Source of the DNA: an uncultured bacterium
GTDB lineage: Bacteria; CSSED10-310; CAZUFC01
Assembly (NCBI GenBank): GCA_964619725.1
Contig: CAZUFC010000122.1
Span: 1 to 24,258 of the forward strand
Direction of reading: 5' to 3'
Length of the DNA stretch: 24,258 bases
The position numbers and the translations under genes are program-made. The number at the start of each line of letters is the position of its first letter. Position 1 is the first letter of the stretch. The notes under the pieces are model-generated. The model was not told the origin of the DNA. It ran no database searches and saw only the letters and a program-made list of their open reading frames with translations. Shown one piece after another: positions 3,964 to 23,269 of this stretch.

Positions 3964-5592
3964 TCATTTCTCTACAATCCCCAGAGCACTTCGCAAGCCT
4001 TTATGCACAGTCAGTTTGGTGTCTAAGCCAAGTTCATTTACGCGAATAGATTCCCCATCAATATGGCTAAACATAAATCGATGTTGGGGACCAAGTTTAA
4101 TTCCTAATAAGCCAATTTCGTAAAAAATAAAGCAAAATTGCTGGCGAACTACGTTTACTGACGACTTTTCTTCAATCAACTGGACCGCAGTTTGATAGAT
4201 AAGACAATCTTGCTCGCGTGGCATTAAATTGTCTGTGACCAAAACTAAACAGAATTCATTAATCGATTCATCTGAAATTTCACCCATCAGAAAAGTTGTT
4301 GGGAAACCATATATTAACTTTGTTACTTTGTTTAAATTTGGATAGTCCCCATGCCATTCATCAATCATAGCCCGTACACGTGAAAGGGAGTATTCTTTTT
4401 CGGCACTTTTTAGAACAGACTGGGAAAATTTCGGCCGCCCGGCTGCCTTTGCTATGGCGTGGTTTAGAAAAGCTATAACATCTCGCGGTCGTAAATGTGT
4501 TCGATCTAAAATAAAATCTATCGGGTCTTCCTTTCGAGCAATCTGTTTATTGGGTAGCAAATCCTGAAGTTTCACATCGGTTTTTACATATGTCCCCTTA
4601 ACAAGATAGTTGATTCTCTTGTCCAGCAACTCAATTAAGTTCTCTTTTGCCCATTTTATAGGAAGACATCGAGATTCATATTTTTCTTGCTGAAATCCAG
4701 CTGATCTAGTTTTTCGAAAGACACGCTGAAGTAAATCTTCTCTCAAAGAAATTAATACTTTGGCATGCCGTACCCTTTGAAAATCACGGGATGTTTCTAT
4801 TAGAGAACGGATTAACCTGTACCTAAAGGCATCATCTACCCATTCTTCATCAAGATGATCAAGGGCAATAAAGTATGGTTTTTGTGGATCATCAAGAACT
4901 TTGTCAATCAAGTCGATTATCTGCGTCAATTCACGGATTTGGACCTCATTTACAACATGTTGTGCCCGAGAAACTACTTCGGCTTTCTGTGTATCCTCTA
5001 AATGAGAACCTGCACAAATATTGGTTTTCGCGCCGGGGATTGCAATATCCAGAGATCCTTCAATGTTTGATTCAAGCTTCCGTGTCAATTCTTTAATCCG
5101 ATAGTCGGTTTCCTTCCAAAAGGAAGTACCCCATTTTTTTATATATTGTAATGCCTCTTCTTGCCTTCTGTCAGTGCATCTCCGGATAAAAGAAAAAAAC
5201 CAATTGTTCGTTTGAGTTTCATCTTCAAGTGCAAACCTCTTACGAATTATTTCAACGGTAAATACATGTCGCCATAATAGTTTAAAGAAAATATCAAAGT
5301 TTACACCAGCATCAAAGAGAAAGCTAAGAATTTGCGAATTGGAAACATAGTTCAACGCCAGGTTTTCAGGTGGTAAAAAAATAACTCTATCGTAGGATTC
5401 CCTTAGTTTTAATAGAAGAGCTGTTTTCCCGGTACCTGTTCGTCCAAGGAGGATTCGTCTCGGATCAGACAGATCCTTTAAACTATCCAAGTATCCAGTA
5501 TCAACAAAGCAATTGCTTAGAAATTGATCGTCTTCTGCATCTGCAGCACCGATTGTGTCGAGTGCTTTAAAGCGGTATTTTACTGAACTCAT
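3964..5592 (-). CDS. P-loop ATPase, Sll1717/FunZ-like family (cassette-borne)
   Basis: N-terminal IGAADAEDD..FLSNCFVDT, Walker A GRTGTGKT, Walker B FIALDHLDE, later RPRDVI. GGAGG RBS, AT-rich, lies between two attC sites. Confidence 0.8.
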   Translation of the reverse strand: MSSVKYRFKALDTIGAADAEDDQFLSNCFVDTGYLDSLKDLSDPRRILLGRTGTGKTALLLKLRESYDRVIFLPPENLALNYVSNSQILSFLFDAGVNFDIFFKLLWRHVFTVEIIRKRFALEDETQTNNWFFSFIRRCTDRRQEEALQYIKKWGTSFWKETDYRIKELTRKLESNIEGSLDIAIPGAKTNICAGSHLEDTQKAEVVSRAQHVVNEVQIRELTQIIDLIDKVLDDPQKPYFIALDHLDEEWVDDAFRYRLIRSLIETSRDFQRVRHAKVLISLREDLLQRVFRKTRSAGFQQEKYESRCLPIKWAKENLIELLDKRINYLVKGTYVKTDVKLQDLLPNKQIARKEDPIDFILDRTHLRPRDVIAFLNHAIAKAAGRPKFSQSVLKSAEKEYSLSRVRAMIDEWHGDYPNLNKVTKLIYGFPTTFLMGEISDESINEFCLVLVTDNLMPREQDCLIYQTAVQLIEEKSSVNVVRQQFCFIFYEIGLLGIKLGPQHRFMFSHIDGESIRVNELGLDTKLTVHKGLRSALGIVEK

Positions 5593-6904: not shown

Positions 6905-8001
6905 TCAGTCTTGATGCGGCACCAATACATTTCGGATAACCTTATCATGGAGAATTACATGGCCGATGCTGTCAATTAGCGCAAGGAATTTGAGTGCGAT
7001 TCGCCTTTCTTCGAAATCAGTATACAAACCATGAAGAATGCCGTGTCTGTTTACCTGCTTTGTTGGGTCCTGAACCTGAGCGGTTCTCATCCAGAATGAG
7101 CCATCCCTGATAAATTCGAAAGCCAGCTCGAAGAGTTCCTTCGGAATAGGATTATTGCCCGTGAAAATACAGTGTTCTTCAGCATATCAACCTTGGCTCT
7201 GAACTGGTTCGGTATGATCGCACCTGCTTCCCCGAGGTAGGATGTAATGATCCCCTCGATCTGGGGAACCAATACGTAGACACATGAGATGAAGTTCTCT
7301 GCCAGGTATTCGTTGATGGCATGGCGTACATACTTTAGCCGCTTTGGGAATACGCCAAGTTCATGCCATTCTTCCAACCTGCTCTCCCAAAACGGTTCAC
7401 TGTGGGTAGCGATGAGGACTTGCTCAATTTGATTGTCATCGGCCAACTGGGCGGTCCTGTGTGCGTAAGTCGTGGCTGTTGGAAAGTGGGATGGAGCAGG
7501 AGGCCAGTTTACATCTGCGAGGCGCCTAAGCTGATCAAGAGGTTTTACTGTGTCTGAATAGTGCTGATAATAAGCTATCTTGGCAAGGTCCCACGGAAGA
7601 TTGTCATCGAGGTCCTGGCCTTGTGAAAGGTTGCCAGGCAGATTGCGCCGGCAATCCATAGCCATGAATAGGTCAACGAACTCGAAACGGGTGTAAAAGT
7701 AGGCGCACTTCTGACCGTCGACTTCAGGTGGAACGACCTTTACTCTGTGTGGATATATACCCTTGAGTTCCAGTATGTCCTCTTGTTCAATAGGGTGCCG
7801 AGTTTCCACCTGTACTGTGAACTCAACCTCCTCGTTTAACTCTACGATCGTCCCGCGTGCATTAGGCTTGAAGATCACCCTGAACTGACGGAGTTGCAGC
7901 GGCCGCTGATCAAATCGTAGCTGTTGAGCGGCAAAGCGGCGATCGACCTCGCGAAGTACGTATTGCGATAGCATGTCCGAGACAATTCTATAGTAGCTCA
8001 T
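6905..8001 (-). pseudogene. HEPN-domain protein split by a 1-nt deletion
   Basis: ATG 8001 with AAGGGAG RBS. Adding one G to GG at 7143-7144 joins ...AIILF to PKELFELAFEFIRDGSFWMRTAQ...NRHGILHG (RX4H HEPN motif). Upstream helix LVPQIEGII. Confidence 0.75.
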
Positions 8002-8022
8002 GATCTGCTCCCTTGAATGCTC

Positions 8023-8090
8023 GCCCAACCATGATTATGCGGAAACCGCTTAACGCGCGTAAACGCGTCGATTCTGTCCGCGTAGCACTT
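8023..8090 (-). other. Putative attI site heading array 1
   Basis: Minus strand ...CTACGCGGACAGAATC...TTAAGCGGTTTCCGCATAATCATG-GTTGGGC: a GTTRRRY core 22 nt before the first cassette ATG, an imperfect inverse L box and no attC-type long palindrome. Confidence 0.55.
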
Positions 8091-8789
8091 TTGCTAATCA
8101 TTCCTATGCGATCCAAAGTAAATTGTTTTTAAATTCATTATGTTATCCTAGCTTTTTATTCGGGGATTTTATCCAGAAACCTTTTAATCTCCTTTTCCGA
8201 ATCCTCCGCAGAGAAAAATCAGAAAATGTTCACCCCGTAAGAGGCATTTTCAATCATAAGACTAAATATCAAATTTTTCGAAAGTAGTCAATTAATTTTG
8301 TCTATGAATCCCTTTTTCAATCCGCAATGATTCACGTTAAGTTATTTAATTTCCGCTTCCCCGCCCCTGATCGCGCCTGTATCGAATGCGGATTTCCCTT
8401 AAGCGGCAGACCCGGACCGGACGTTGCGCCCTCACCCAGGACGGAGGCATTCAAGCCGCCGACAAGCCGTTTATTTTCGCTCATAATGCGATTTAAGCCA
8501 GAATAGAAGACGTTCATATCCCCGATTTCACCGGAGCGGACAGAACGTAAAACGGTCGCCTTCCCGCCGCTTCCATTCCCTGATGTATAGAGTCGGGAGA
8601 TTTCGCTGCGCACGCATTCCCGGTTTTATCGGGATGGGGAGCGGTTACGTTTTTTGGGACTGATCAAACCGTGGTTACACTTCTCTCATAACTTTTGACA
8701 AGTTGTTTCAGTAATCGGGGAGGGTATGGTTACCGCGATCGCAATCGGGATAAAAACAAAATGATTAGATATTCTGTAGAATTGATCCT

Positions 8790-9928: not shown

Positions 9929-10275
9929 TTACCCTTTCAGACTCTCCTCCAAGTCTGCTGCGGCCTGCCAATCCGTGGGATAATTATCGGTGGAGTGAGA
10001 TAAATCGAAAATCCATATCTGGTCGCAATCGTTCTCGTTTATTAACTGCGAAGCCTGATCGTCGGAGGAAAGATTCACCCAGTCCGCATCTGCTCCGGCA
10101 TTCACGGGCGGCTCATAAACGCTGTAACCGTCCGCATCGTATGAAGTTCCATGAACGTTGATCATCAGTAAACGATGTTCGGGAACCGGCGTCGGCGTCA
10201 TAAAGGCAGCCACGCAGGATAAAGTCGTCAAAAAGAAAAAAAGACCGTAAGAACTGAAAAATTCCTTATCTTCAT
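9929..10275 (-). pseudogene. Truncated secreted protein with a homopolymer frameshift in the signal peptide
   Basis: GGAGA-ATG at 10275. Changing T7 (A7 at 10236-10242) to T8 gives MKIRNFSVLTVFFFFLTTLSCVAAFMTPTPVP... The acidic mature part ends after about 90 aa. Confidence 0.55.
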
Positions 10276-10611
10276 CGTTTCTTCTCCATAATCCATTTAA
10301 CAAATATTGGAAAAGAATTTTTTTCCATTGCTGCTTCCCTTGCATACCGGATTAAATTTGAAAAATCAATTCGGGACGGTTTCACTCTTTTAATGCTTGA
10401 TAATTTTTCATGTTTCCGTTAGTCTTTCTACGAAAAATCATCGACGCAGCAACGAAATCGTTGATTTCACTCATACTGCAGGAAATTTCGTTCGGCGAAG
10501 AATTCATTAGAAGAAAAAACAAGCTCATTTATATTGCATGAAAATGGGAAAAGACGAGAATACATTGATTAAAGGGCACAATAGAATGCGTAGTCTGAAA
10601 TATCGAAGCAG

Positions 10612-13452
10612 GTGAAAAAGGATATGACCAGAGAAGACGGAGAGACCGTCGTTCGGGAAGCTGGATTCGAAGGAACGACGTACGCATTTTTAGAGCCCGG
10701 TACAATAATCACCGGCAGGAATCATTCCTACTATATCCGGGAACATATTGCGCGAGGAGGTCAATGCGACGTTTATACGGCCGATTTTTTCGGCGATGCA
10801 GGCGATAAACACAGGTTGGCGGTGAAGATAGTTCGCCCCCAGGCGGATAACGAGGCGCGAAAAGAACTCGCAGAGATGCTCCAGCGGGAAGGTGAGATTT
10901 TGCTCAAGCTGGACCATCCCAATCTTGTTCCCTGCCGTGACGCTGGATTTCATGAAGAGATGCCGTTTCTGGTCATGAATTATATCCATGGAGATCAACT
11001 CGATTTTTGGCTTCGGAAGAATCATGATGCTTTATTAGAGACGAAACTGCGGTTATTATCGGAAATCGCAGACGGGATAGCTTATCTGCACAAACGAAAA
11101 ATAGTCCATCGAGGCATCAAACCATCCAATATAGTCATAACGGACAACACAAACGCCGTTATTCTTGATCTCGGCGTCTGTTTACTCGACAGGCGTACTG
11201 AACGTCAAGAAAGAAAACTCACTGAACTGGGTCAGAGGATAGGAACGCCGGGTTGGTGGTCTCCGGAGCAATATTTCGACGGTAAGGCCGTCGATAAGCG
11301 CTCCGATGTGTATCAAACGGGTCTGGTAACTCTTTTCATGCTGGCCGGCATTAATCCTTATTTGACCGCGCCGAATCCGAAGCTGATTGAAGGGAATAAC
11401 AGTATCCCTTATCCCGTCGTCAAGATGACGAAAAAGATGCTGAGACGTTCGCCTTCGACCAGGTTTCACAATATGAAAAGGATTGCATCGATTTTTCGAT
11501 TATCGAGATGTAATTTGCAAAATGAAACGCTCTTGACGAAAAATCAGGGCATGGTGGAAAGCTATTCGGCAAATAAGGCGCGGAAAACAGGAGTTTCCTT
11601 TTTTTCAGTATTTGAGAATAAGGGGAGGTCTCTATGGTTACGTATTTATTTCAACAGACTGCACATTTTGGCGCCCCTGATTTTTCTCGTTTTAATGCTG
11701 TCGGTTTTTTTCATATCGATTAATGACGCTTTTTCCGTGAATGGCTTACCCTCATATAACCTTGAATCGGAAGCTACATTGAATGTTGACGAACCGTTTC
11801 CTAAAAGAGACTGGAGTTTTGGTCTGAAGGATGAAATTACAAAGCTTGTGATTCCCGATCCCCCTTACGGCAATTTCTTCCCGGGGAAAAAGCGTTGCTG
11901 GCTGGTTGGAGGAGGAGCCAATAGTCGCCTTGTTGCTGAAACAGAAAAGCAATTACCGTTCGAGAACGGCATGGTTTACCTCGTGCAACCGCCGAAGTCT
12001 TTATTCGGCCGTCCTGAAATAATCGACAGGCATTCGGTCGAACCGAGGGATTTTTATCCCGATGTCGGTTTTGATTACATTATAAGTAAAATTTTATGGC
12101 TGGAAAATACCTCCTCATACAACGGATTTCTTATTCTTTCTTATTCCAGGCAAGGATTCCCCAACATTGCAGTATTTCGCGAATATTGTAAAAATCGGGA
12201 TGTTATTGGCTCCTCCAAAATATACTCGAATGCCGGGGGCATATCTGACGTGATCAAAGTTCCTGGAGATTCTGAAGGTCTTTATTCTCTTGTTTTCTAT
12301 GGAAACAACTGGCGTATGAACAAGCGTCCCGTCGTTTTTAAAATAAGCAATTATCGCCATCCGGGTGAAATGCCCCCGTTTGAAAATGGACTCGGAACGA
12401 CGTTGAGTCTGCCGTTTGACTGGTATGTTCTTCTTCCCGGAGGTCAGGGCGATGGAATAATCCAAATCTCGATCGAGCGGGAAAAAGAGATTGTTGAAAT
12501 AATCGATCGCCGCTCCAACAGGATAAAAATTGATTTCAACAATGGACGTATACTGGGCAAACCCGATATTCCCGACAGACTCGAAAGGCAAAAAGAATTT
12601 TGGAAGTCTCTGAGAAAAGCGCAGCTTTATTATCATGACGGAAAACTGATGAAGGCGATAAATGAAATAAAGAAATATGAAGACATTCCTCTGGGCAATC
12701 GCGGCCTGGAGGTATATCTGTATTACCTTCTGGGCCAATGGCATTTGCGTAAAAACGACTGGAAGGCTTCAAAAGAATATTTTATCGCAGGCGCTGAGAA
12801 AGACCCCACAAATATAGAATGCACATTGGCTCTGGCGGAATGGTATCACGAACAGGGCCGGTTTGAGGAAGAACTTGAATTTTACGAAGACCTTGGAGTA
12901 AAGGATGTTGAAAGTCATTACTGGTTGGCAGGTAAAGAATTAAAAGCCATGTATCTGAACGGCATGAAAAGAGAAGCGCAGGCTGAAGCCCGCATTTTTG
13001 CCGGGAAAAGGAGCAACAGGCAGACAGTGATTCACAATTCATTGGAATTATATGCGTATTACTCTTTTCTGTCTGACGACATGCAAACGGTTCTTTCGGC
13101 GTTAAAAGAAAACAGGCTGCTGCTGCACGCGGACAATCCGTTGACGGTATCATTGGAAGCCATGGCGGATTGCGCTTTGAGAAACAGTGAAAAATACAGT
13201 CATCACGCCGGCCGGCTCGATCAATGGCTGACTTACAACATCCTGGACCCGAAACTGAGAGCCATCCTTCATGAAGCCAGGGCGGAGGTGCACGCCGCGC
13301 AAAATGAACATGGAAAAGCTGAAGAACAGTTGAAGAAAGCCCTGGATGAAATCGAGCGATACGGAAACTGGTATATCGATTTGAGAAGTGTGGAAGACCG
13401 TTTGAGGGCAAAGTTGAACCGGATTAATACTGACGTTTTCGAAGAGCTCTGA
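10612..13452 (+). CDS. Membrane Hanks-type Ser/Thr kinase-fold protein with extracytoplasmic domain and C-terminal TPRs; catalytic HRD replaced by HRG
   Basis: IARGGQCDVY, LAVK, REGEIL, LDHPNLV, VHRGIKPSN, DLG, GTPGWWSPEQ, SDVYQTG; TM helix ILAPLIFLVLMLSVFFISI; TPR-like YLLGQWH and LALAEWY. Start is GTG 10612 or ATG 10624. Confidence 0.9.
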   Translation: MKKDMTREDGETVVREAGFEGTTYAFLEPGTIITGRNHSYYIREHIARGGQCDVYTADFFGDAGDKHRLAVKIVRPQADNEARKELAEMLQREGEILLKLDHPNLVPCRDAGFHEEMPFLVMNYIHGDQLDFWLRKNHDALLETKLRLLSEIADGIAYLHKRKIVHRGIKPSNIVITDNTNAVILDLGVCLLDRRTERQERKLTELGQRIGTPGWWSPEQYFDGKAVDKRSDVYQTGLVTLFMLAGINPYLTAPNPKLIEGNNSIPYPVVKMTKKMLRRSPSTRFHNMKRIASIFRLSRCNLQNETLLTKNQGMVESYSANKARKTGVSFFSVFENKGRSLWLRIYFNRLHILAPLIFLVLMLSVFFISINDAFSVNGLPSYNLESEATLNVDEPFPKRDWSFGLKDEITKLVIPDPPYGNFFPGKKRCWLVGGGANSRLVAETEKQLPFENGMVYLVQPPKSLFGRPEIIDRHSVEPRDFYPDVGFDYIISKILWLENTSSYNGFLILSYSRQGFPNIAVFREYCKNRDVIGSSKIYSNAGGISDVIKVPGDSEGLYSLVFYGNNWRMNKRPVVFKISNYRHPGEMPPFENGLGTTLSLPFDWYVLLPGGQGDGIIQISIEREKEIVEIIDRRSNRIKIDFNNGRILGKPDIPDRLERQKEFWKSLRKAQLYYHDGKLMKAINEIKKYEDIPLGNRGLEVYLYYLLGQWHLRKNDWKASKEYFIAGAEKDPTNIECTLALAEWYHEQGRFEEELEFYEDLGVKDVESHYWLAGKELKAMYLNGMKREAQAEARIFAGKRSNRQTVIHNSLELYAYYSFLSDDMQTVLSALKENRLLLHADNPLTVSLEAMADCALRNSEKYSHHAGRLDQWLTYNILDPKLRAILHEARAEVHAAQNEHGKAEEQLKKALDEIERYGNWYIDLRSVEDRLRAKLNRINTDVFEEL

Positions 13453-13587: not shown

Positions 13588-13792
13588 ATGCCTGAGATTA
13601 AAAAAAACTGGGCGGTCCACGCCAAACAGTCAAAGAGTAGTCATATATAAAAAATTACCGCATGGACTTCCCTTTTGGTCAGAGTTGACCGAAAAATCAT
13701 AGAATTTCCCGTCTTGATGATCGTCTTTCCATTAAAGCAAATATATTTATATACAATAACCTATGTAGATTTTTCATTGTTTCTGTTTTCCC

Positions 13793-13807
13793 TGGCATGG
13801 AGCTTGC
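13793..13807 (+). promoter_or_regulatory. Sigma54 (RpoN) -24/-12 promoter
   Basis: TGGCATG-GAGC-TTGC matches TGGCACG-N4-TTGC with exact GG-N10-GC spacing. An AT-rich tract lies upstream; about 140 nt to the ATG. Confidence 0.75.
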
Positions 13808-13948
13808 CCTTAGTCAAACCGTCATTATCTGCAGCGAAGGGAGGTGACTCAAGGTTATATTTCGTTCCCGGCGGAAGGACATTTCACCGCAATCTGCGGA
13901 CAGCGAAGTTTTAGAAGTAATTTTCAGGACTTAATGAAAGGAGAAACA

Positions 13949-16900
13949 ATGAAAAATCAGTTGACGGTATTGATGATGATATGGATGATTGGGATTCTTG
14001 CAGCCTCAGGCGAAAGGGTGCAAGCCGAATTTATTTTGTATGAGGATTTTGAGTCGATAGATGAGTTTCCTTCGGATGACTGGAACGTGCATACGCTTTA
14101 TAATCCGGACCTTTCGCCCGACATTGATCCTGTAAACGGTAATCCCGGTCATTGTTACGCGCCGGGAGGCGCCGGCGACGGACAGAATACGGAAATCTAT
14201 CATAACGAATTCACGGTGGATTACAGTCGCGGTTGCCGTATGACCTGCGATTTCAAAATTACCGACACATCAGCGCATTATAATGACCTTTGGTTCGGAT
14301 TAGCTCAGGGGGATGTGGTCGACGGGGAGAATACAGCGTTTTCCGTTGAGCTCTGGTTTAACGGGAGCGCCGGCGACAACTACGTTTATTGCAGGATAAA
14401 CGGTTATCAGGACAATGAAGAGTTAATATATATTGAAAACGGATTCGTGCCGGGTCAGTATCATATGGCGGAGATTAGAATACGGCCGGACCGTCTGGTG
14501 GAATTTTACGTTGACGGCGTTCTTTTATGGACGACGTCCCGGACGATCGACATGATGTATAATCACGGCATACCTGTTTTAGGGGGTTTCAATGCGAGTC
14601 CTGCGTATGCCGACAATTTTTACATTAACGAACAGTTTTACCGGATACCCTATTGTGAAGACTTTGAAGAAATTGAAGAATTGCCTTCTGATGACTGGGG
14701 CGTGCACACTCTGTACAATCCTTACATAGAGCCTGCCATTGACCCGACACAAGGGAATCCGGATCATTGTTACGTTCCCGGAGGAGCCGGCGACGGGCAG
14801 AACACAGAAATATACGCTAAATACTACACAGCGGACTACAGCCGCGGATTCCGAATGACGTGCGATTTTTACCTGAGCGATACGTTGACTCATTACAACG
14901 ATTTGTGGATGGGATTGCCCAGGGAGCGTATCCTGAATGGCGACAACATCGATTACGCTGTTTTTATGACGTTGAATGCCGCAGCCGACAATCGCAATGT
15001 CGGCGGATACATAGGTTCTGAGAATGCCGGTCATCAAGATTCATTTGTAATTCCGGGAGGATTCGACCCCGGCGTATGGTACCAGGCGGAGATAAGAATA
15101 CGTCCCGATCAATACGTGGAATTTTATTTGAACGGCGACTTGCTGTACACGACCGTGACGAAGATAGACCCGGCTTACAATAATGCACCGCCGGTATTGG
15201 GCGGATTCAACACTTATCCTGTTTATGCCGATAATTTCTGTCTGGATGAATTTTTCTACATGGACATGTTTGAGGATTTCGAGTTGATTGATGAATTCCC
15301 TTCTGAGGATTGGAGCATCCATACATTGTACAATCCCGGACTTTCGCCGAGTATTGACAGGACGCACGGCAATCCTCGCCATTGTTATGCTCCCGGTGGG
15401 GCCGGCGACGGAATGAACACGGAAATCTACCATAACTCATTCCTGGCGGATTACAGCGAGGGACTGGTTATGAGTTGCGATTTCTTTTTGACCGACTGTT
15501 CTTCTCATTACAACGATCTGTGGTTCGGTTTGCCCATGGAGGATATAGTAAACGGGGACAATCTGGATTATGTGGTATTCATAGGTTTTAACGGAGGAGC
15601 GGGGAACCGGACAGTCGACATGTATATCAACTCGGAATACCCGGCTCACCAGGATCACCATTACATTCCCAATTCTTTTACAGACAATGCGTGGCACACA
15701 GCGACCGTAGTCGTCAGGCCTGATTTGCATGTGGAGTATTACCTTAACGGCGATCATCTCTGGACGACCGAAAACACAATAGACCCGGCCTATAATGAAT
15801 CGCCGCCGGTTCTGGGCGGATTCAATGCGCATCCTGCCCACGCGGATAATTTTTTCGTCAGTAAGTCTCTGGGCGGGACGACTCAACCAACGCCGACATT
15901 AGTCCCGACATATCAAATTACTGAAACTCCGACCTTCTATCCTACTCCGACGCCCGCGGTAACGTTTACGCCCACAGAAGATTTCCTGTGGATAGAGGGA
16001 GCGACCGGAGAGAACGGCGAAACCGTGCAAATAACAGTCAATATCCATAATCCATTTACGCCCCTCAATGAATTCGGATTGGACCTGACTTATTGTCCCG
16101 CAATGCTTCAGTTCGATTCCTGCGAACCGGGCGATTTGACTACGAATTGGTACGAGCTGGACTGCAATGACGAGACCCAGGACAGTTATGTGCGGGTTGC
16201 GGGATTCCATACCCAGGAGATTCCTTCCGGGAGTTACGGCAGCATAGCGATCCTGAATTTCGTGGTGAATTGTCCGGACTGCCTGGACGGCGATCAATGC
16301 ACCATATGCCCTCAGAATATGGTCGACGACATAGGCGGGTGGATGACGCAATGCGATACATTCACCTTCATCGATTGCATTAACGACGGCGATGTGTCGA
16401 ACGACGGAATGATTACTCCTCGCGATGCCAATATGGCCTTTCAGCTTTACCTGACCATGATCCCCGATCCCAGCCGACAGGAATTATGCTCTGCAGACTG
16501 CAACGGCGACGGAAACGTTACGCCCGCTGACGCCAACTGCATATTCAAGCATTATCTGGATATGGGCTGTAGTTGCGTAGATCAGCCTGAATCGCCTGGT
16601 AACAACGGTTTCAATCCTGCTGAAAAAATCTCCACTTATTCAAACAACAATCGAATATCTCATCCTGGATCGCCTCACGGCATCATCTGCGCATATCTCA
16701 TACCCGATTCCACCACTGACCGTCTTAAAATGGTCGTTTCAATCGATAAATCAGACCAGCCCATCGCTTCATTAGGGTTCAAACTGCATTATCCTGAGTC
16801 TGAACTGGAATTCTGTGACGTACGATTCGGCGATTTCGTCGATGGCTGGCCCTTTACAGGCGTCGGTCAGTATCCTGATGCGATCAAAATAGGCGCTTTC

Positions 16901-17086
16901 CAGCCTGAAGTCGATGAACGCCAGGACGACAGCGGTATACTCGCTGTCATTACCTTTAAACGTAATGCCAGGGTAATTCCGTGGGACTTTGACCGGTTAG
17001 AGTTCGACTTGACCTGTCTGGTGGACGACATCGCAGGCTTCGATGTCGTTTTTGAACAAAAAAACAGCTTGTCTGGAATAAATTGA
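13949..17086 (+). CDS. Secreted modular protein: signal peptide, 3x 205-aa beta-sandwich-like repeats, Pro/Thr linker, cohesin, dockerin, cohesin
   Basis: AAGGAG-ATG at 13949 (1045 aa). Repeats start at 14039, 14654 and 15269 (exactly 615 nt apart); PT linker ~15878-15975; cohesin-like FGLDLTY..LQFDSCEPGDL..SGSYGSIAILNF; duplicated Ca-binding dockerin motifs GDVSNDGMITPRDA and ADCNGDGNVTPADA; second cohesin LGFKLHY..LEF..GDF..SGILAVITF. Confidence 0.88.
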   Translation: MKNQLTVLMMIWMIGILAASGERVQAEFILYEDFESIDEFPSDDWNVHTLYNPDLSPDIDPVNGNPGHCYAPGGAGDGQNTEIYHNEFTVDYSRGCRMTCDFKITDTSAHYNDLWFGLAQGDVVDGENTAFSVELWFNGSAGDNYVYCRINGYQDNEELIYIENGFVPGQYHMAEIRIRPDRLVEFYVDGVLLWTTSRTIDMMYNHGIPVLGGFNASPAYADNFYINEQFYRIPYCEDFEEIEELPSDDWGVHTLYNPYIEPAIDPTQGNPDHCYVPGGAGDGQNTEIYAKYYTADYSRGFRMTCDFYLSDTLTHYNDLWMGLPRERILNGDNIDYAVFMTLNAAADNRNVGGYIGSENAGHQDSFVIPGGFDPGVWYQAEIRIRPDQYVEFYLNGDLLYTTVTKIDPAYNNAPPVLGGFNTYPVYADNFCLDEFFYMDMFEDFELIDEFPSEDWSIHTLYNPGLSPSIDRTHGNPRHCYAPGGAGDGMNTEIYHNSFLADYSEGLVMSCDFFLTDCSSHYNDLWFGLPMEDIVNGDNLDYVVFIGFNGGAGNRTVDMYINSEYPAHQDHHYIPNSFTDNAWHTATVVVRPDLHVEYYLNGDHLWTTENTIDPAYNESPPVLGGFNAHPAHADNFFVSKSLGGTTQPTPTLVPTYQITETPTFYPTPTPAVTFTPTEDFLWIEGATGENGETVQITVNIHNPFTPLNEFGLDLTYCPAMLQFDSCEPGDLTTNWYELDCNDETQDSYVRVAGFHTQEIPSGSYGSIAILNFVVNCPDCLDGDQCTICPQNMVDDIGGWMTQCDTFTFIDCINDGDVSNDGMITPRDANMAFQLYLTMIPDPSRQELCSADCNGDGNVTPADANCIFKHYLDMGCSCVDQPESPGNNGFNPAEKISTYSNNNRISHPGSPHGIICAYLIPDSTTDRLKMVVSIDKSDQPIASLGFKLHYPESELEFCDVRFGDFVDGWPFTGVGQYPDAIKIGAFQPEVDERQDDSGILAVITFKRNARVIPWDFDRLEFDLTCLVDDIAGFDVVFEQKNSLSGIN

Positions 17087-17096
17087 AAACAGCAGA

Positions 17097-17789
17097 ATGC
17101 GCAATTCGGAGGAAACGCCAGTGAAAAATTCAGATAATTCCGGACGGCAAAATCGAAACAGGGCGCGGCCGGAGCTTAAATGGCGGACATGCTTCAACGC
17201 TGCACTGTTGATCCCGGCTTTGCTGCTTGCTTCAGTTGCCGGCGATTCTCAGGCAGCCGAGAGGTCCGGACAGATCGCTATCGGCGACGTTTCTGGATGC
17301 TACGGGGATTCAGTTCGCATAACCGTCTCCCTCCAGAACAATTCCTTTTCAATCGAACAATTCGGTTTTGATCTGATCTTCTGCCCGGAAATGTTGGAAT
17401 ACGTTTCGGCGGAAAGGGGCGATTTGATACCGGAATGGCCCTTCCTGGAAGGATTCGAGCTGGACCAGGGATGCGTAAGAATGGGTGGGTTCTCACCTGA
17501 AAATCCCATTCCCCCTCAGAGCTCCGGAATCCTTCTTTACGTCAACTTCACCGTTACATGCGACGCATGCCTGGAGGGCGACGTGTGCGAAATCGACTGT
17601 ATCAATCCTGTTGACGATATAGTGGACTTTTCCATTCAAAACGCCTCCTTCACCTATTCATGCGGTGAGGCCGTTCCGTGTCTCAATCTTATAGGCGTTG
17701 CCGTTCTTCTAATTCTGCTGTCCGGTATGAAATTCAAAACTCGAAGAAAGATTGAAAAACGCGGAATGCCGATCGAGCATCATCTGTAA
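17097..17789 (+). CDS. Single-cohesin protein with C-terminal IPTL/PEP-CTERM-like sorting signal (putative anchoring scaffold)
   Basis: Signal-like AALLIPALLLASVAG..QA; cohesin FGFDLIFCPEMLEYVSAERGDLI..SSGILLYVNF; C-terminus VPCLNLIGVAVLLILLSG followed by basic KFKTRRK. Starts 10 nt after the upstream stop. Confidence 0.82.
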   Translation: MRNSEETPVKNSDNSGRQNRNRARPELKWRTCFNAALLIPALLLASVAGDSQAAERSGQIAIGDVSGCYGDSVRITVSLQNNSFSIEQFGFDLIFCPEMLEYVSAERGDLIPEWPFLEGFELDQGCVRMGGFSPENPIPPQSSGILLYVNFTVTCDACLEGDVCEIDCINPVDDIVDFSIQNASFTYSCGEAVPCLNLIGVAVLLILLSGMKFKTRRKIEKRGMPIEHHL

Positions 17790-17841
17790 GGTCGAAAGCA
17801 GGTGAAGTCCTGATAATCGCAGACTCGAACCCTTGTTCACA

Positions 17842-17878
17842 AGGACCGCCGGAGACGATTGCTGTTTCCGGCGGTCCT
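17842..17878 (+). terminator. Strong hairpin after the cohesin operon (terminator or stabiliser)
   Basis: AGGACCGCCGGAGAC...GTTTCCGGCGGTCCT, 15-bp stem with one G.U pair. No U-tract follows. Confidence 0.5.
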
Positions 17879-18434: not shown

Positions 18435-19505
18435 ATGGTAAATAAATCAAGATTTAACCAGGTTTTCGTCAGTTATGCCCATGAAGATAAACCTGCTGTC
18501 CGAAAGATATGTCGAGAGTTGAAACGAAACGATGTGAACGTATGGTGGGATGATGACTCTCTGAAAAACCATGGAATTGAGCTGGATCATGAAATTGTAA
18601 GGGAGATTTATAAAAGTCGGTTCGTGATTTTTTGTCTTAGCCGGAATTCGAAACTAAAAATAGGCGAGGATTCGATAGGTTTCGTAGACCATGAATTGAA
18701 CATTGCTTTCAATGCATCATTAACTAGAAAAGAAGAAATGTTTGAACTTTTAATCGTGAAGCTCGAAGAAATTGATCTAGCCGATAAAAGATTGAAGGAA
18801 AAGAAATATTTTTCCGTCGAAGTCGGATTTCAGGAATGTATTGATTCAATTACTGCTCATATAACCGCTGGTACGGAGACGTTTTCCAAGGCAGAAAGAG
18901 ATTGGATCAAATTTGATGCTTTAATGAACAGGTCTTTTGATTGTTTCAAAAAAGATCAAACCGACAAGGCAATCCAATATGTCGATGAAGCCATTGCAAT
19001 ATTTCCTGATAATTATCAGGCGTGGTCTCATAAAGGAGCGATTCTGAATGAAGTTGCCAGAGACGAAGAAGCGCTGAAATGCTTTACCAGGGCAACGGAT
19101 ATTTGTTCGGTGGGTTTTGAAGCCTTGAACAATAAAGCAACTTTATTGTTGAAAATGGGTCGATTTAAAGAGGCTTTGGCGACAGCCGATAAAGCAATTT
19201 CCGTTGTCGACACTGTTCATGACGCCTGGCTTACGAAAGCATACGGTTTGTTTGCTTTAAGCAAATACAGTAAAGCGCTGGAAGCATTAAACGATGGGCT
19301 CTCCAAATGCAGGGACGAACAAGGAAAAAGCATTCTTTGGAATACAAAAGGGTGTTTTTTTCTGGATCGGAGAGAGGTTGGAGAAGCTGCTAGGGCATTT
19401 AACAAGGCGTTGGATATAGATGCAGATAATGAAGACGCACAACGAAATCTGCTGGGACTGCAAACATCTTTTATGCATGGACTGAATGGAGGATTTTTAG
19501 AGTAA
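18435..19505 (+). CDS. TIR-domain + TPR-repeat protein
   Basis: VFVSYAHED, VNVWWD, FVIFCLSRNS and FVDHEL (catalytic-position Glu). About 5 TPRs: AWSHKGAIL, ALNNKATLL, AWLTKAYGL, LWNTKGCFF. Confidence 0.9.
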   Translation: MVNKSRFNQVFVSYAHEDKPAVRKICRELKRNDVNVWWDDDSLKNHGIELDHEIVREIYKSRFVIFCLSRNSKLKIGEDSIGFVDHELNIAFNASLTRKEEMFELLIVKLEEIDLADKRLKEKKYFSVEVGFQECIDSITAHITAGTETFSKAERDWIKFDALMNRSFDCFKKDQTDKAIQYVDEAIAIFPDNYQAWSHKGAILNEVARDEEALKCFTRATDICSVGFEALNNKATLLLKMGRFKEALATADKAISVVDTVHDAWLTKAYGLFALSKYSKALEALNDGLSKCRDEQGKSILWNTKGCFFLDRREVGEAARAFNKALDIDADNEDAQRNLLGLQTSFMHGLNGGFLE

Positions 19506-20298: not shown

Positions 20299-20625
20299 TT
20301 CAACTTACGTCTTCAATGCGAATCTTGTCGGCAGTGAACACAGTGGATTTCAGAAAAGGCATAGACGGCCTGGTTGGCGTGTGTCGAAACATCCTTAAAA
20401 TGACCCTTTTTCCGGTTATGTTTTTGCATTCCGCAATCGTTCTGGAATCCCGCTTAAGATATTGGCGTACGAAGGTCAGGGATTTTGGCTATGTCAAAAA
20501 CGATTTTCAACCGATCGTTTGAAATATTGGCCCCGAAGCGCGGAGGGAGGAATAAGCTTATTGGCAGCCAGAGAACTTCAGGTGTTGATATGGAACGGCA
20601 TTCCCGATGCTGCCGAGATGTCGTT
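20295..20625 (+). pseudogene. tnpB: IS66 accessory protein TnpB, frameshifted
   Basis: VDFRKGIDGL; shift in the A4 at 20397-20400; then DPFSGYVFAFRNR..KILAYEGQGFWLCQKRFS. Confidence 0.85.
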
Positions 20626-21468
20626 GGACCGGTGTCGGGTTTGCAGCGGAAGTTATTGTAAATAAAGAACGATTTCTTGTGTTGCCCTGGGAGCGCTCGA
20701 AAAATCTTGCTTCACGAATTTTAGGCATGGCCTTGCGTCGTCTGTCCGACGATTGGATGAAGCGATACAATTACTGGTCCGTACTGGCGGAGACGTTCGT
20801 ACAGAAAGAAAGATTCTCCGCGACCAGTTTCAATGCCTCTAATTGTCTTTGCGTAGGAGAAACCCGCTGCCGCGGTAAACTGGACGTAAAACATGAACAT
20901 GCGATGCTGGTGAAAACTGCTTGGCTTTACCCCCTGATCCCACGGTTCCGCGCCTGTTTGCCTGAATTGGAAAAACCATGAAAGAGAAAAAGACGATTGA
21001 AATGAGTTCCAAGCGGCTCCCGTTTGGCCGGATGAATGCCGCCATGTGATTGAAGCCCTCGGCCGGGTATTTTATGTCGAAAAACGGGTCAAAAGTGAAA
21101 ACCTCACACCGGGTGAATGCCTGGAGCTTCATTTCGCAAGGGGGAAGTTTAACAATGGAGTTCTGAAGGACAAATGCAGCAACGGTTTATGTTTCCTTCA
21201 TTTGTCTTTCTTCCGCTGGGTAGCCTTCTATGATTTCCAATTAATGGAATATTAGCTTGCCTGTTTTGAAGGGATTCTCGTTGCCCGGCGACGGTGCTCC
21301 GTAGTCGAAACTGATTGTCGACTCCTCATGCCTTGCCGTGGAAAAAAATTTGCCCTGAGCATGCTTACCGGAATAGTACGATTCAGCGGACTTAGTGTGA
21401 CTTGAATGCAGAAGGAAGGTTGGCTCCAATCCGCGTAATTGCAACGAAATATTGCAACATCGGGTCGT

Positions 21469-22477: not shown

Positions 22478-23269
22478 CTACTTGAGAACCTGACACAAGC
22501 ACTCGAGGAGGGCTTCAAAGTCCTTGAGAGTCATTTGATAACCGATCTCATTGCGGTGTTCAACGGCACCTGTAGTGAATGTCGACGTTGTGGCTAACAG
22601 ACTTGCGTTCGCTCTGTGCATCTGCTGAGTCCCGTACAGAGCGCGGACGACTTGAACACCAACACGCCTTTGAGGGGAATATCGTTTGCACTCTGCTATG
22701 CACAGGAACTCCCCAACCTTGTCCTTGCGGACCGCCCAGACATCCACACCTCCATCCCGGGTACCTGGACCGAGTGTGACACTGTACCCACTCCGGTGGA
22801 ATAACTCACCTACAACTTCCTCGAACTGTCTCGGCGTGAGCTCGTGGAATCCAGCTGGATCGCGATTCAGTCTTTCTAGCAGTCCTGCACTAACAACCAC
22901 CAGATCGGGCCTCACTTGAGCCAGTTTCATATCTGCTTTGGCAAGCTGGTAGATTCTCCGGTGGACGGGAAGCTTCACACTGCTGTCGCCTCCCAGATAC
23001 CGAACAACGTCGTATTTGATATCCCGCACATACCTGGTCTCAATGCGGCGTTCAGTACCTTCATAGTCCTCTGCTAGCCACAGAGCTGCATCAAGTAGGT
23101 CGGTGGCATCCGCCCCGTGCACTGCGAAGAGCTGTGCCGCGAAGCAGAGCCACCTATGATCCTCGCGTTCTGCTGTCTCTTTGATTTGATCTGCCAACTG
23201 GCGGGCTTCAGATATCCTCCCGGATTGCAGCAGTGACTCCAAACGATTAAACTCATCATCAACGTACAT
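22478..23269 (-). CDS. Mrr-like (type IV) restriction endonuclease domain protein with unknown helical N-terminal domain
   Basis: LTPRQFEEVVGELF..GY.V..TRDGGVD..IAECKRY..VGVQVVRALYG..TTSTFT (PD-(D/E)xK Mrr_cat). Flanked by attC sites. Confidence 0.88.
   Translation of the reverse strand: MYVDDEFNRLESLLQSGRISEARQLADQIKETAEREDHRWLCFAAQLFAVHGADATDLLDAALWLAEDYEGTERRIETRYVRDIKYDVVRYLGGDSSVKLPVHRRIYQLAKADMKLAQVRPDLVVVSAGLLERLNRDPAGFHELTPRQFEEVVGELFHRSGYSVTLGPGTRDGGVDVWAVRKDKVGEFLCIAECKRYSPQRRVGVQVVRALYGTQQMHRANASLLATTSTFTTGAVEHRNEIGYQMTLKDFEALLECLCQVLK

Follow-up and report, generated by a model that had tools for sequence, protein, structure and literature searches.

The assembly of protein complexes through cohesin–dockerin pairs is understood almost wholly from the cellulosomes of Gram-positive bacteria, and the role of the modules that occur outside cellulosomes is open. 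In Ruminococcus flavefaciens, the sortase-anchored scaffoldin ScaE carries a single cohesin and serves as a cell-bound socket for a scaffoldin that ends in a dockerin. A gene pair reminiscent of this arrangement was found in the DNA analyzed here, a stretch of 24,258 bases (the window) that is the complete contig C122 of a 9.17-Mb genome bin (344 contigs, completeness 90.9%, contamination 6.5%) from the candidate phylum CSSED10-310. The first gene encodes a secreted scaffold, or adaptor, with three lectin-like modules, two cohesins and a dockerin, and the second encodes a small one-cohesin protein with a C-terminal tail of the sorting type (the anchor). The reading that is somewhat favored here, from the sequence, is that the locus is a two-gene cohesin–dockerin display cassette in which the tail-tethered anchor docks the lectin adaptor, with a role in adhesion or matrix building.

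ScaE (type III cohesin, PDB 2zf9) and the window anchor are alike in being small secreted proteins with one cohesin and a tripartite tail, and 2zf9 was among the fold matches obtained. They differ in that ScaE depends on an LPXTG motif and a sortase in a monoderm, whereas the window anchor has a VP/IP motif, a candidate enzyme of the exosortase/archaeosortase family and a diderm host; moreover, the partner of ScaE is a cellulolytic complex, whereas the window pair is without a glycoside hydrolase (GH). The adaptor in turn resembles R. flavefaciens ScaC (whose cohesin, 5lxv, is also listed by Foldseek) and ScaA/ScaB of Acetivibrio cellulolyticus, in which cohesin(s) and a dockerin in one chain bridge an anchor and other dockerin proteins. 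Unlike in those adaptor scaffoldins, the window dockerin is internal, placed between cohesins of different clades and fused to the first of them, the chain carries three lectin-like modules, and six cysteines are conserved in the Cys-rich dockerins.

Non-cellulosomal cohesin and dockerin modules were reportedly treated by Peer et al. in 2009. In a review on ANME (anaerobic methanotrophic) archaea, cohesins and dockerins are described as abundant and their function outside cellulosomes as unknown; to that extent, cohesin–dockerin systems and non-cellulosomal modules are already known (PMC5244752). Such modules (Archaeoglobus fulgidus 2xdh, ANME), like the window pair, are not linked to glycoside hydrolases and have a role that is adhesive or unknown, but they have been reported as domain censuses or single structures, whereas the host genome studied here offers a repeated operon grammar, a tail family and a candidate sorting enzyme. 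The dockerin-repeat giants of Omnitrophota were considered and set aside as a different system (10.1101/2023.11.21.568195). The genome announcement for CSSED10-310 predicts Gram-negative cells and makes no mention of cohesins or dockerins (PMC8248873). Among the full texts searched, none names both dockerin and PEP-CTERM, and the single paper in which cohesin, dockerin and exosortase all occur draws no connection between them.

Domains of the scaffold and its anchor

The two open reading frames (ORFs) of the pair lie on the same strand, 10 nt apart (Table 1). The scaffold starts at the ATG at 13949 behind AAAGGAG, both of which are kept in a paralog on contig C86 of the same genome (the ORF called by the program begins at a GTG at 13844), and its signal peptide (MKNQ...ERVQA) is followed by the three modules, a Pro/Thr-rich linker, cohesin 1, the dockerin, a further linker and cohesin 2. 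An earlier reading of the letters alone (the sequence-only reading) had described a two-gene operon with these modules, linker, cohesins, dockerin and anchor, and all of them, including the Pro/Thr-rich stretch after module 3, were located where it had placed them; the interval that it had assigned to the system, 13793..17878, runs from the first base of a promoter-type motif, TGGCATggagcTTGC, to the last base of a 16-bp hairpin.

The cohesin and dockerin assignments, for which profile searches had been suggested as a check, were borne out both by Pfam and by the fold. With the whole scaffold as the query, Cohesin (PF00963, gathering score 24.1 bits) matched two stretches (E 4.5e-7, 30.6 bits) and Dockerin_1 (PF00404, gathering score 22.9 bits) matched at E 8e-6 with 26.4 bits. 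When domains were scanned singly, 32.5 bits were obtained for the dockerin, 25.3 for the anchor cohesin (23.7 with the whole anchor protein), 22.3 for cohesin 1 and 16.5 for cohesin 2; the predicted one-cohesin protein thus passes the cut-off with its domain alone. A tblastn search with the anchor cohesin recovered the C86 counterpart of cohesin 2 at E 4e-8. An AlphaFold2 (AF2) model of cohesin 1–dockerin–cohesin 2, based on a nine-row alignment (predicted local distance difference test, pLDDT, 79.3; predicted template-modelling score, pTM, 0.61), consists of two β-sandwiches and a three-helix dockerin (helices at model positions 158-203), the two scaffold cohesins having the nine-stranded jelly roll that is expected of the family. 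Its best Foldseek match was the ScaA cohesin dyad of A. cellulolyticus (3l8q, E 2.4e-12), which spanned both cohesins, and the single-domain matches comprised A. fulgidus 2xdh (TMt 0.78), 4uyq (TMt 0.79), 1g1k (TMt 0.79) and type I cohesins with TMt of 0.7-0.79.

The dockerin combines a profile score over the cut-off, helices in the model and two Ca loops, and the loops (DGDVSNDG..D and DCNGDG..D) are conserved, together with six Cys, across 20 dockerins of the genome. It joins cohesin 1 directly, without a linker, and is separated from cohesin 2 by a linker of ~45 residues. The similarity between cohesin 1 and the anchor cohesin, which had been pointed out on account of their Cys-rich strings, is real: CPDCLDGDQC of the former aligns with CDACLEGDVC of the latter, the two domains are 34% identical, and one Cys of the aligned strings is invariant in 34 anchor-type cohesins.

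The pair is part of a larger duplicated block, which on C86 comprises, in the same order, a divergent tail-bearing gene, a kinase gene (77% identical to that of the window), a scaffold gene (83%) and an anchor gene (69%). The first of these encodes a 384-aa (amino acid) protein with a VPA tail, and a 138-aa ORF of the window, for which no Pfam family was found, is its truncated counterpart, i.e., the duplicated unit consists of four genes and the window copy is without most of the first. That the observation is beyond chance follows from the domain E-values, from the 83% and 69% identity of the C86 pair, and from a gene order that is repeated in 11 cassettes (see below).

The scaffold modules (residues 27-231, 232-436 and 437-642) are indeed tandem copies, as the sequence-only reading had it, since the second and third are 54% and 56% identical to the first, and many acidic, His and Tyr residues are invariant in their alignment. 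Laminin_G_3 of Pfam matched the scaffold at E 1.3e-5, under its cut-off, NCBIfam had no family for either the scaffold or the anchor, and the absence of a recognizable glycoside hydrolase domain was upheld, as neither Pfam nor NCBIfam detected such a family in the two proteins. The AF2 model of the module (pLDDT 73.9, falling below 50 in residues 9-52, where the most conserved motifs lie) is a ConA-like jelly roll. When it was compared with known structures by VIA-align, the carbohydrate-recognition domain (CRD) of ERGIC-53 came first (Z 16.2, root-mean-square deviation 3.0 over 177 residues), followed by the legume-lectin domain of M. jannaschii (Z 15.5) and VIP36 (Z 15.3), with GH16 glucanases and CBM66 just 1-2 Z units under the lectins; Foldseek placed the lectin domain of calreticulin at the top and a PL7 alginate lyase after it. 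From this model the modules are read as glycan-binding, and an enzymatic role is also possible. A string EDFE was considered as a GH16 catalytic motif and rejected by eye.

The module family is rare: a profile made from 10 modules found 116 matches at E<=1e-3, and 8 at E<=1e-30, among 1.84 billion representative proteins. Thirty of these relatives were scanned for other domains, which gave PEP-CTERM in three, tails of the type IX secretion system (T9SS) in two, cohesins in two and GH10 in one.

Related cassettes in the genome and the phylum

The census of cohesin, dockerin and exosortase genes that the sequence-only reading had proposed was carried out and changed the picture, in that the cassette does not stand alone and is one of about 11, in a genome with a single exosortase-family gene. 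Pfam models gave 34 cohesin and 13 dockerin matches, and profiles built from the window modules and applied to the 22,519 ORFs of at least 70 aa gave 56 cohesins, spread over 34 ORFs, and 25 dockerins, one in each of 25 ORFs. A common grammar was apparent, in which a secreted protein of ~1,000-2,200 aa that ends in dockerin–linker–cohesin is followed by a gene with 1-5 cohesins and a C-terminal tail. Of 12 tail-bearing ORFs with cohesins only, 11 lie directly 3′ of a dockerin gene, the two genes overlapping by 4 nt at the closest and standing 156 nt apart at the widest, and the twelfth, on C5, is an orphan. In four further proteins (1,208-12,076 aa), here called self-anchored giants, the dockerin–cohesin–tail ending is contained in one chain. 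The largest (G000:C34:1739-37969) is a single open frame of 12,076 aa that ends in this way, and the others have 3095 aa (C7), 2806 aa (C182) and 1208 aa (C19).

In phylogenetic trees, three groups of dockerins parallel the groups of cohesins. The window dockerin, cohesin 1 and the anchor cohesin group with those of the cassettes on C2, C8, C15 and C154, and cohesin 2 falls into a separate “post-dockerin” clade.

The cargo of 16 of the 25 dockerin proteins was scanned, and it consisted mostly of Beta_helix/NosD domains, with FG-GAP/CARDB, Laminin_G_3, PLD+TIG and, in one protein, CBM_4_9 besides. None of the 16 matched a catalytic glycoside-hydrolase family at E<=1e-5, nor did the window scaffold and anchor. 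A cellulosome would be marked by dockerins on glycoside hydrolases or other CAZymes (carbohydrate-active enzymes) and by a scaffoldin with a carbohydrate-binding module; the system had been called non-cellulosomal, and these proteins agree with it. At G000:C12:40012-40745 (- strand), a dockerin and a cohesin are spread over three short ORFs with an in-frame TAG, which looks like a broken dockerin–cohesin gene. Two short contigs, C276 and C277, carry near-identical partial genes (578 aa each, with a dockerin–cohesin ending), which probably represent variants from different strains or a duplication in the assembly, and through which the module counts of the genome are slightly inflated.

Outside this genome, the scaffold as a query found cohesin or dockerin matches in nine of the 13 other genomes of the phylum and in none of 27 genomes from other parts of the domain. 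A search of genome contigs for related loci with the scaffold as the single query returned 18 pattern matches and no relative, and the same search with the module alignment had as its sole find a contig of G012, a genome of another family of the same phylum, in which one protein has three modules followed by cohesin–dockerin–cohesin, as in the window scaffold. On that contig (G012:C253, L038), the gene after the scaffold (7639-8520) shows no cohesin relation and no tail, and upstream of it (1199-2305) lies a gene for a single-module protein of 368 aa, which means that the module family also exists as a stand-alone secreted protein. The other relatives found were cohesin–dockerin adaptors, three-cohesin scaffoldins that end in a dockerin, and dockerin–cohesin cargo followed by a cohesin scaffoldin.

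Tail, sorting enzyme, transcription signals and neighbors

The anchor ends in VPCLN, 14 hydrophobic residues and KFKTRRK, after which 12 more residues follow. It had been described as IPTL/PEP-CTERM-like, which stood as to the exosortase-type class, given a tail profile and a candidate enzyme, and did not stand as to the two named families, whose models it does not match. The C-termini of ORFs of at least 150 aa were searched with a regular expression for such tails ([IVL]P-x, then a hydrophobic stretch, then clustered basic residues), which fitted 202 of 6667, compared with seven internal windows and four reversed C-termini as controls; a further 47 fits came from reversed N-termini, i.e., from signal peptides in backward order. 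Among the 202 tails, IPA (64) and VPA (48) predominate, and VPC is found in just two, the window anchor and its C86 paralog. The bearers include ~200 large secreted proteins, 77 of them of at least 1000 aa. A profile was then built from 178 tails with the window and C86 left out (consensus PPIPALSSAGLLLLILLLGLLLLFRKKK), and it scored the window tail at 17.4 bits and that of C86 at 13.1, the training median being 32.7 and the top of 4995 internal control windows 12.0.

In the whole genome, PEP-CTERM (PF07589) had no match at E<=1, and IPTL-CTERM (TIGR04174 / PF18203) had two tails over its cut-off and seven weaker ones, none of them on C122. In a search of the protein database among proteins of 126-403 aa, the anchor found just itself and its C86 paralog; look-alikes from a protein-language comparison, which are a lead only, were Acidobacteriota proteins of ~220 aa, 40% of them with IPTL-CTERM.

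The one exosortase-family gene of the genome (C134:12955-13527; L057:1956-2528, - strand) encodes 190 aa and matched the exo_archaeo signature TIGR04178 with 65.7 bits (cut-off 23). Of the named subfamilies, archaeosortase B (78 bits) and XrtH (76.6 bits) come closest to it, the latter being an enzyme that pairs with IPTL signals. The IPTL-CTERM, VPXXXP-CTERM/archaeosortase B and PEP-CTERM/XrtA systems have the same tripartite tail build, but the C134 enzyme falls under all named subfamily cut-offs and the window tail fits no CTERM model. The enzyme gene adjoins a gene for a tail protein, with a sigma-54 activator gene (C134:9784-10284) ~3 kb away, and the family signature was present in all 14 genomes of CSSED10-310 (14/14). 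As far as sequence can tell, the genome thus has what a generic exosortase/archaeosortase sorting system consists of, i.e., a tripartite tail on many proteins and an enzyme of the family, and the [IV]P[AST]-TM-KR tails (TM, transmembrane) and the C134 enzyme are possibly an undescribed CTERM/exosortase pair. The host is a diderm, because six Omp85 matches and LpxC are present in its genome, and the link that had been drawn from exosortase signals to diderms agrees with this outer-membrane host.

Upstream of the scaffold, a promoter of the sigma-54 type is likely but unproven. The -24/-12 motif, which passed as a sigma-54 site by the pattern TGGCAC-N5-TTGCW with exactly 10 nt between GG and GC, is conserved in the C86 paralog, which retains cGGCATGGAGtTTGCCCTTAGT as the best-conserved intergenic block, the region being otherwise poorly conserved between the two, with a kept block GGCATGGAG(C/T)TTGCCCTTAGT; the genome has one rpoN gene and 37 activator genes. 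Among 20 cohesin/dockerin genes, the scaffolds of the window and of C86 are the only ones with such a site within 600 nt upstream, and genome-wide 100 sites were observed versus ~52 expected by our own arithmetic. These data, all of them read from the DNA itself, back regulation by RpoN as proposed by the sequence-only reading in so far as the motif is kept and the sigma factor is encoded; the shortcomings of that proposal are taken up below. An imperfect palindrome upstream of the motif may be a candidate activator site. Another block conserved in both paralogs, GAAGGGAGGTGA at 13827-13838, lies ~20 nt downstream of the -12 element and far from the start codon. It may represent a leader element, and no conserved short ORF follows it in the comparison of the window with C86. 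After the anchor, the terminator scan called no site, and the hairpin there is possibly a transcript end or stabilizer.

The kinase-like gene upstream encodes a membrane protein whose catalytic loop reads VHRGIKPSN, i.e., HRG (G168, codon 11113-11115), versus HRD in the aligned StkP and in the C86 paralog (L035:6756-9593, - strand). It had been called a pseudokinase, which is apt for the window copy and not for its paralog. The contigs of two runs of one study have the same letters at the HRG codon, with no variant seen in these contigs, and because they agree the window gene is probably a real degenerate copy and not an assembly error. The suggestion that the kinase regulates the cassette was not borne out, as nothing ties it to the promoter. 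Conservation of the order kinase–promoter–scaffold–anchor, another proposed check, was found on C86 and not in G012.

The locus is present in contigs from four runs, all of one microbial-mat study, and no RNA run is among the runs listed as holding it. Around the cassette lie a tRNA gene (2382-2455) and defense-like genes, namely an AAA_16-like ATPase (3964-5592), a TIR_2+TPR protein (18435-19505), a fragment matching Druantia DruA (20607-20981) and an Mrr_cat restriction endonuclease (22478-23269), and the G+C content drops to ~38% at 4-5 kb and 18-19 kb. Because of these neighbors and the G+C dips, the region looks like a variable island.

Table 1. Positions of the cassette, its domains and the associated elements in the 24,258-base window.
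Feature	Position	Strand	Remarks
Truncated 138-aa homologue of a 384-aa VPA-tailed protein	9929..10345	-	C86 counterpart C86_36935_38089 (L035:9936-11090, +); divergent from kinase
Hanks-type Ser/Thr kinase-like membrane protein	10612..13452	+	Kinase domain, TM helix, unknown domain, TPR
Imperfect palindrome GGTCA-N4-TGACC	13677..13690	+	~117 nt upstream of -24 element; partly conserved (GGGCA-N4-TGACC) in C86
Sigma-54-type -24/-12 motif TGGCAT-N5-TTGC	13793..13808	+	141 nt 5′ of start codon; conserved in C86
Scaffold/adaptor gene	13949..17086	+	Encodes 1045 aa; signal peptide and 3 lectin-like modules, then PT (Pro/Thr) linker, cohesin 1, dockerin, second linker and cohesin 2
Three tandem ~205-aa ConA-like (L-type-lectin-like) modules	14027-14641, 14642-15256, 15257-15874	+	Alignment, AF2, Foldseek
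Cohesin 1 (Cys-rich, anchor-type clade)	15947..16384	+	Pfam, tree, model; envelope takes in the end of the PT linker
Dockerin, six conserved Cys	16373..16600	+	Two Ca-loop repeats (DGDVSNDGMITPRD, DCNGDGNVTPAD); Pfam, alignment, model
Cohesin 2 (divergent, “post-dockerin” clade)	16646..17074	+	Without CxxC...C motif; tree, model, tblastn
Anchor gene	17097..17789	+	Encodes 230 aa (protein-database entry: 222 aa) with long signal peptide, single cohesin at 17238-17672 and C-terminal tail
Sorting-type tail VPCLN-LIGVAVLLILLSGM-KFKTRRK	17673..17750	+	Diverged member of the [IV]P[AST]-TM-KR tail family of the genome
16-bp GC-rich hairpin	17842..17878	+	53 nt after anchor stop codon, no T run; z -3.0, 2/200 shuffles fold as well

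The docking model and its alternatives

In the assembly proposed for the window pair, the tail of the anchor would let the exosortase-family enzyme retain the protein in the membrane or process it there, and the Ca-binding dockerin of the adaptor would plug into the anchor cohesin. The lectin-like modules would thereby be displayed and could bind glycan, e.g., of the mat matrix or of another cell, and the two cohesins of the adaptor could take up further dockerin proteins of the same specificity, i.e., other copies of the adaptor or the giant β-helix proteins. The cassette would in that case serve adhesion or the building of a matrix rather than polysaccharide breakdown, and transcription would probably start at the sigma-54 promoter, with the activator encoded elsewhere.

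Several observations weigh against this model. Cohesin 2 scores under the Pfam cut-off, as does cohesin 1 when it is scanned alone, and for the module the scores of GH16 glucanases and PL7/PL20 lyases come close to those of lectins. The tail of the window anchor is unusual (VPC in 2 of 202, 12 residues past the basic cluster, half the median score), and no curated CTERM model matches it (Pfam E<=1, NCBIfam E<=5). The sigma-54 motif, with at most one mismatch allowed, turns up in 84 of 100 shuffled versions of the window and is not significant alone, and the search for activator genes in the genome found none on C122 or C86. The scaffold in G012 is without an adjacent anchor and has an ECF (extracytoplasmic function) sigma/anti-sigma pair as neighbors. 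Congruent trees and gene adjacency are not proof of cognate binding, because the duplication of whole cassettes gives the same pattern, and the route by which a protein with an inner-membrane tail and its partners would pass the outer membrane is not explained by the model.

The alternative that survives best, which is still rated unlikely, is that the neighbors are not partners. The dockerin would clasp cohesin 1 or 2 of its own chain, or bind only those anchors of other cassettes that have several cohesins, the small anchor would hold other dockerin proteins of the same specificity group (group Y), such as the β-helix giants, and no branched array would form. Dockerin, linker and cohesin follow one another in one chain in nearly all of the cargo, which fits a dyad in cis; the missing linker between cohesin 1 and the dockerin and the pTM of the three-domain model, which suggests some packing, fit a clasp of this kind; the group-Y dockerins are 46-59% identical to the window dockerin, which makes binding across cassettes plausible; and the lone scaffold of G012 is in keeping with it as well. 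The placement of 11 of the 12 anchors directly after a dockerin gene, however, argues for cognate pairs, and the spacing of ~8-15 residues between dockerin and cohesin in the self-anchored giants would leave little room for a canonical complex in cis.

Less probable than this is a complex that is periplasmic or bound to the inner membrane, in which the tail would be a plain membrane anchor and the pairs would organize envelope proteins of the periplasm. The outer membrane of the host, with no export route across it evident in the window, is compatible with such a location, and so are the 12 extra residues after the tail and its failure to fit any curated exosortase signal. Tail-bearing ORFs of 3,000-12,000 aa with adhesin-type repeats are, however, hard to picture in the periplasm, and the exosortase-family enzyme is conserved in all 14 genomes of the phylum. 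In addition, in the diderm Methylomirabilis lanthanidiphila, the surface-layer (S-layer) protein bears a predicted IPTL-CTERM tail (PMC8671808).

The least probable of the three is that the modules are GH16-like glucanases or PL7/PL20-like lyases held on the cell, i.e., an analogue of the cellulosome for mat polysaccharide, for which the invariant acidic, His and Tyr residues, the fusion of one distant module relative (P0025) to GH10 and the fold lists could speak (PL7 alginate lyase 7w13, E 4e-7; lichenase 3i4i, Z 14.7; GH16 enzymes, Z 13-14.3; glucuronan lyase 2zzj, Z 12.9; 1-3 Z units under the lectins), but there is no hit to a GH or polysaccharide lyase (PL) family in Pfam or NCBIfam, the GH16 strand motif, ExDxxE, is absent by eye (the only similar string, EDFE, sits in the first strand), the structures ranked highest are lectin domains that lack catalytic activity, and a threefold tandem array is more usual for binding modules.

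The display cassette may also be viewed as one part of a larger structure, an extension of the docking model that is advanced tentatively and regarded as doubtful. On this view, the outermost coat or matrix of a diderm phylum would consist of a hierarchical cohesin–dockerin network on exosortase-type tails, in which multi-cohesin anchors carry giant β-helix proteins that are chained head to tail by their dockerin–cohesin ends, and sigma-54-switched lectin adaptors branch the network and bind glycans. The result would be an enzyme-free, self-assembling “adhesome” whose sorting signal and enzyme subfamily are undescribed.

What is new in this host is the phylum itself, which is double-membraned, uncultured and from microbial mats, together with a tail outside the curated models, anchors with several cohesins, cargo that ends in dockerin–cohesin, a lectin adaptor of the cohesin–dockerin–cohesin type and the self-anchored giants. 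Its genome offers a clean and testable grammar, with 11 cargo–anchor pairs, three co-varying specificity groups, a defined tail and a single candidate sorting enzyme. The Cys-rich mini-domains could serve as orthogonal parts in synthetic scaffolds, and, if the pairs bind, docking of the cellulosome type would emerge as a general means of making surfaces adhesive, tied to sorting of the exosortase type.

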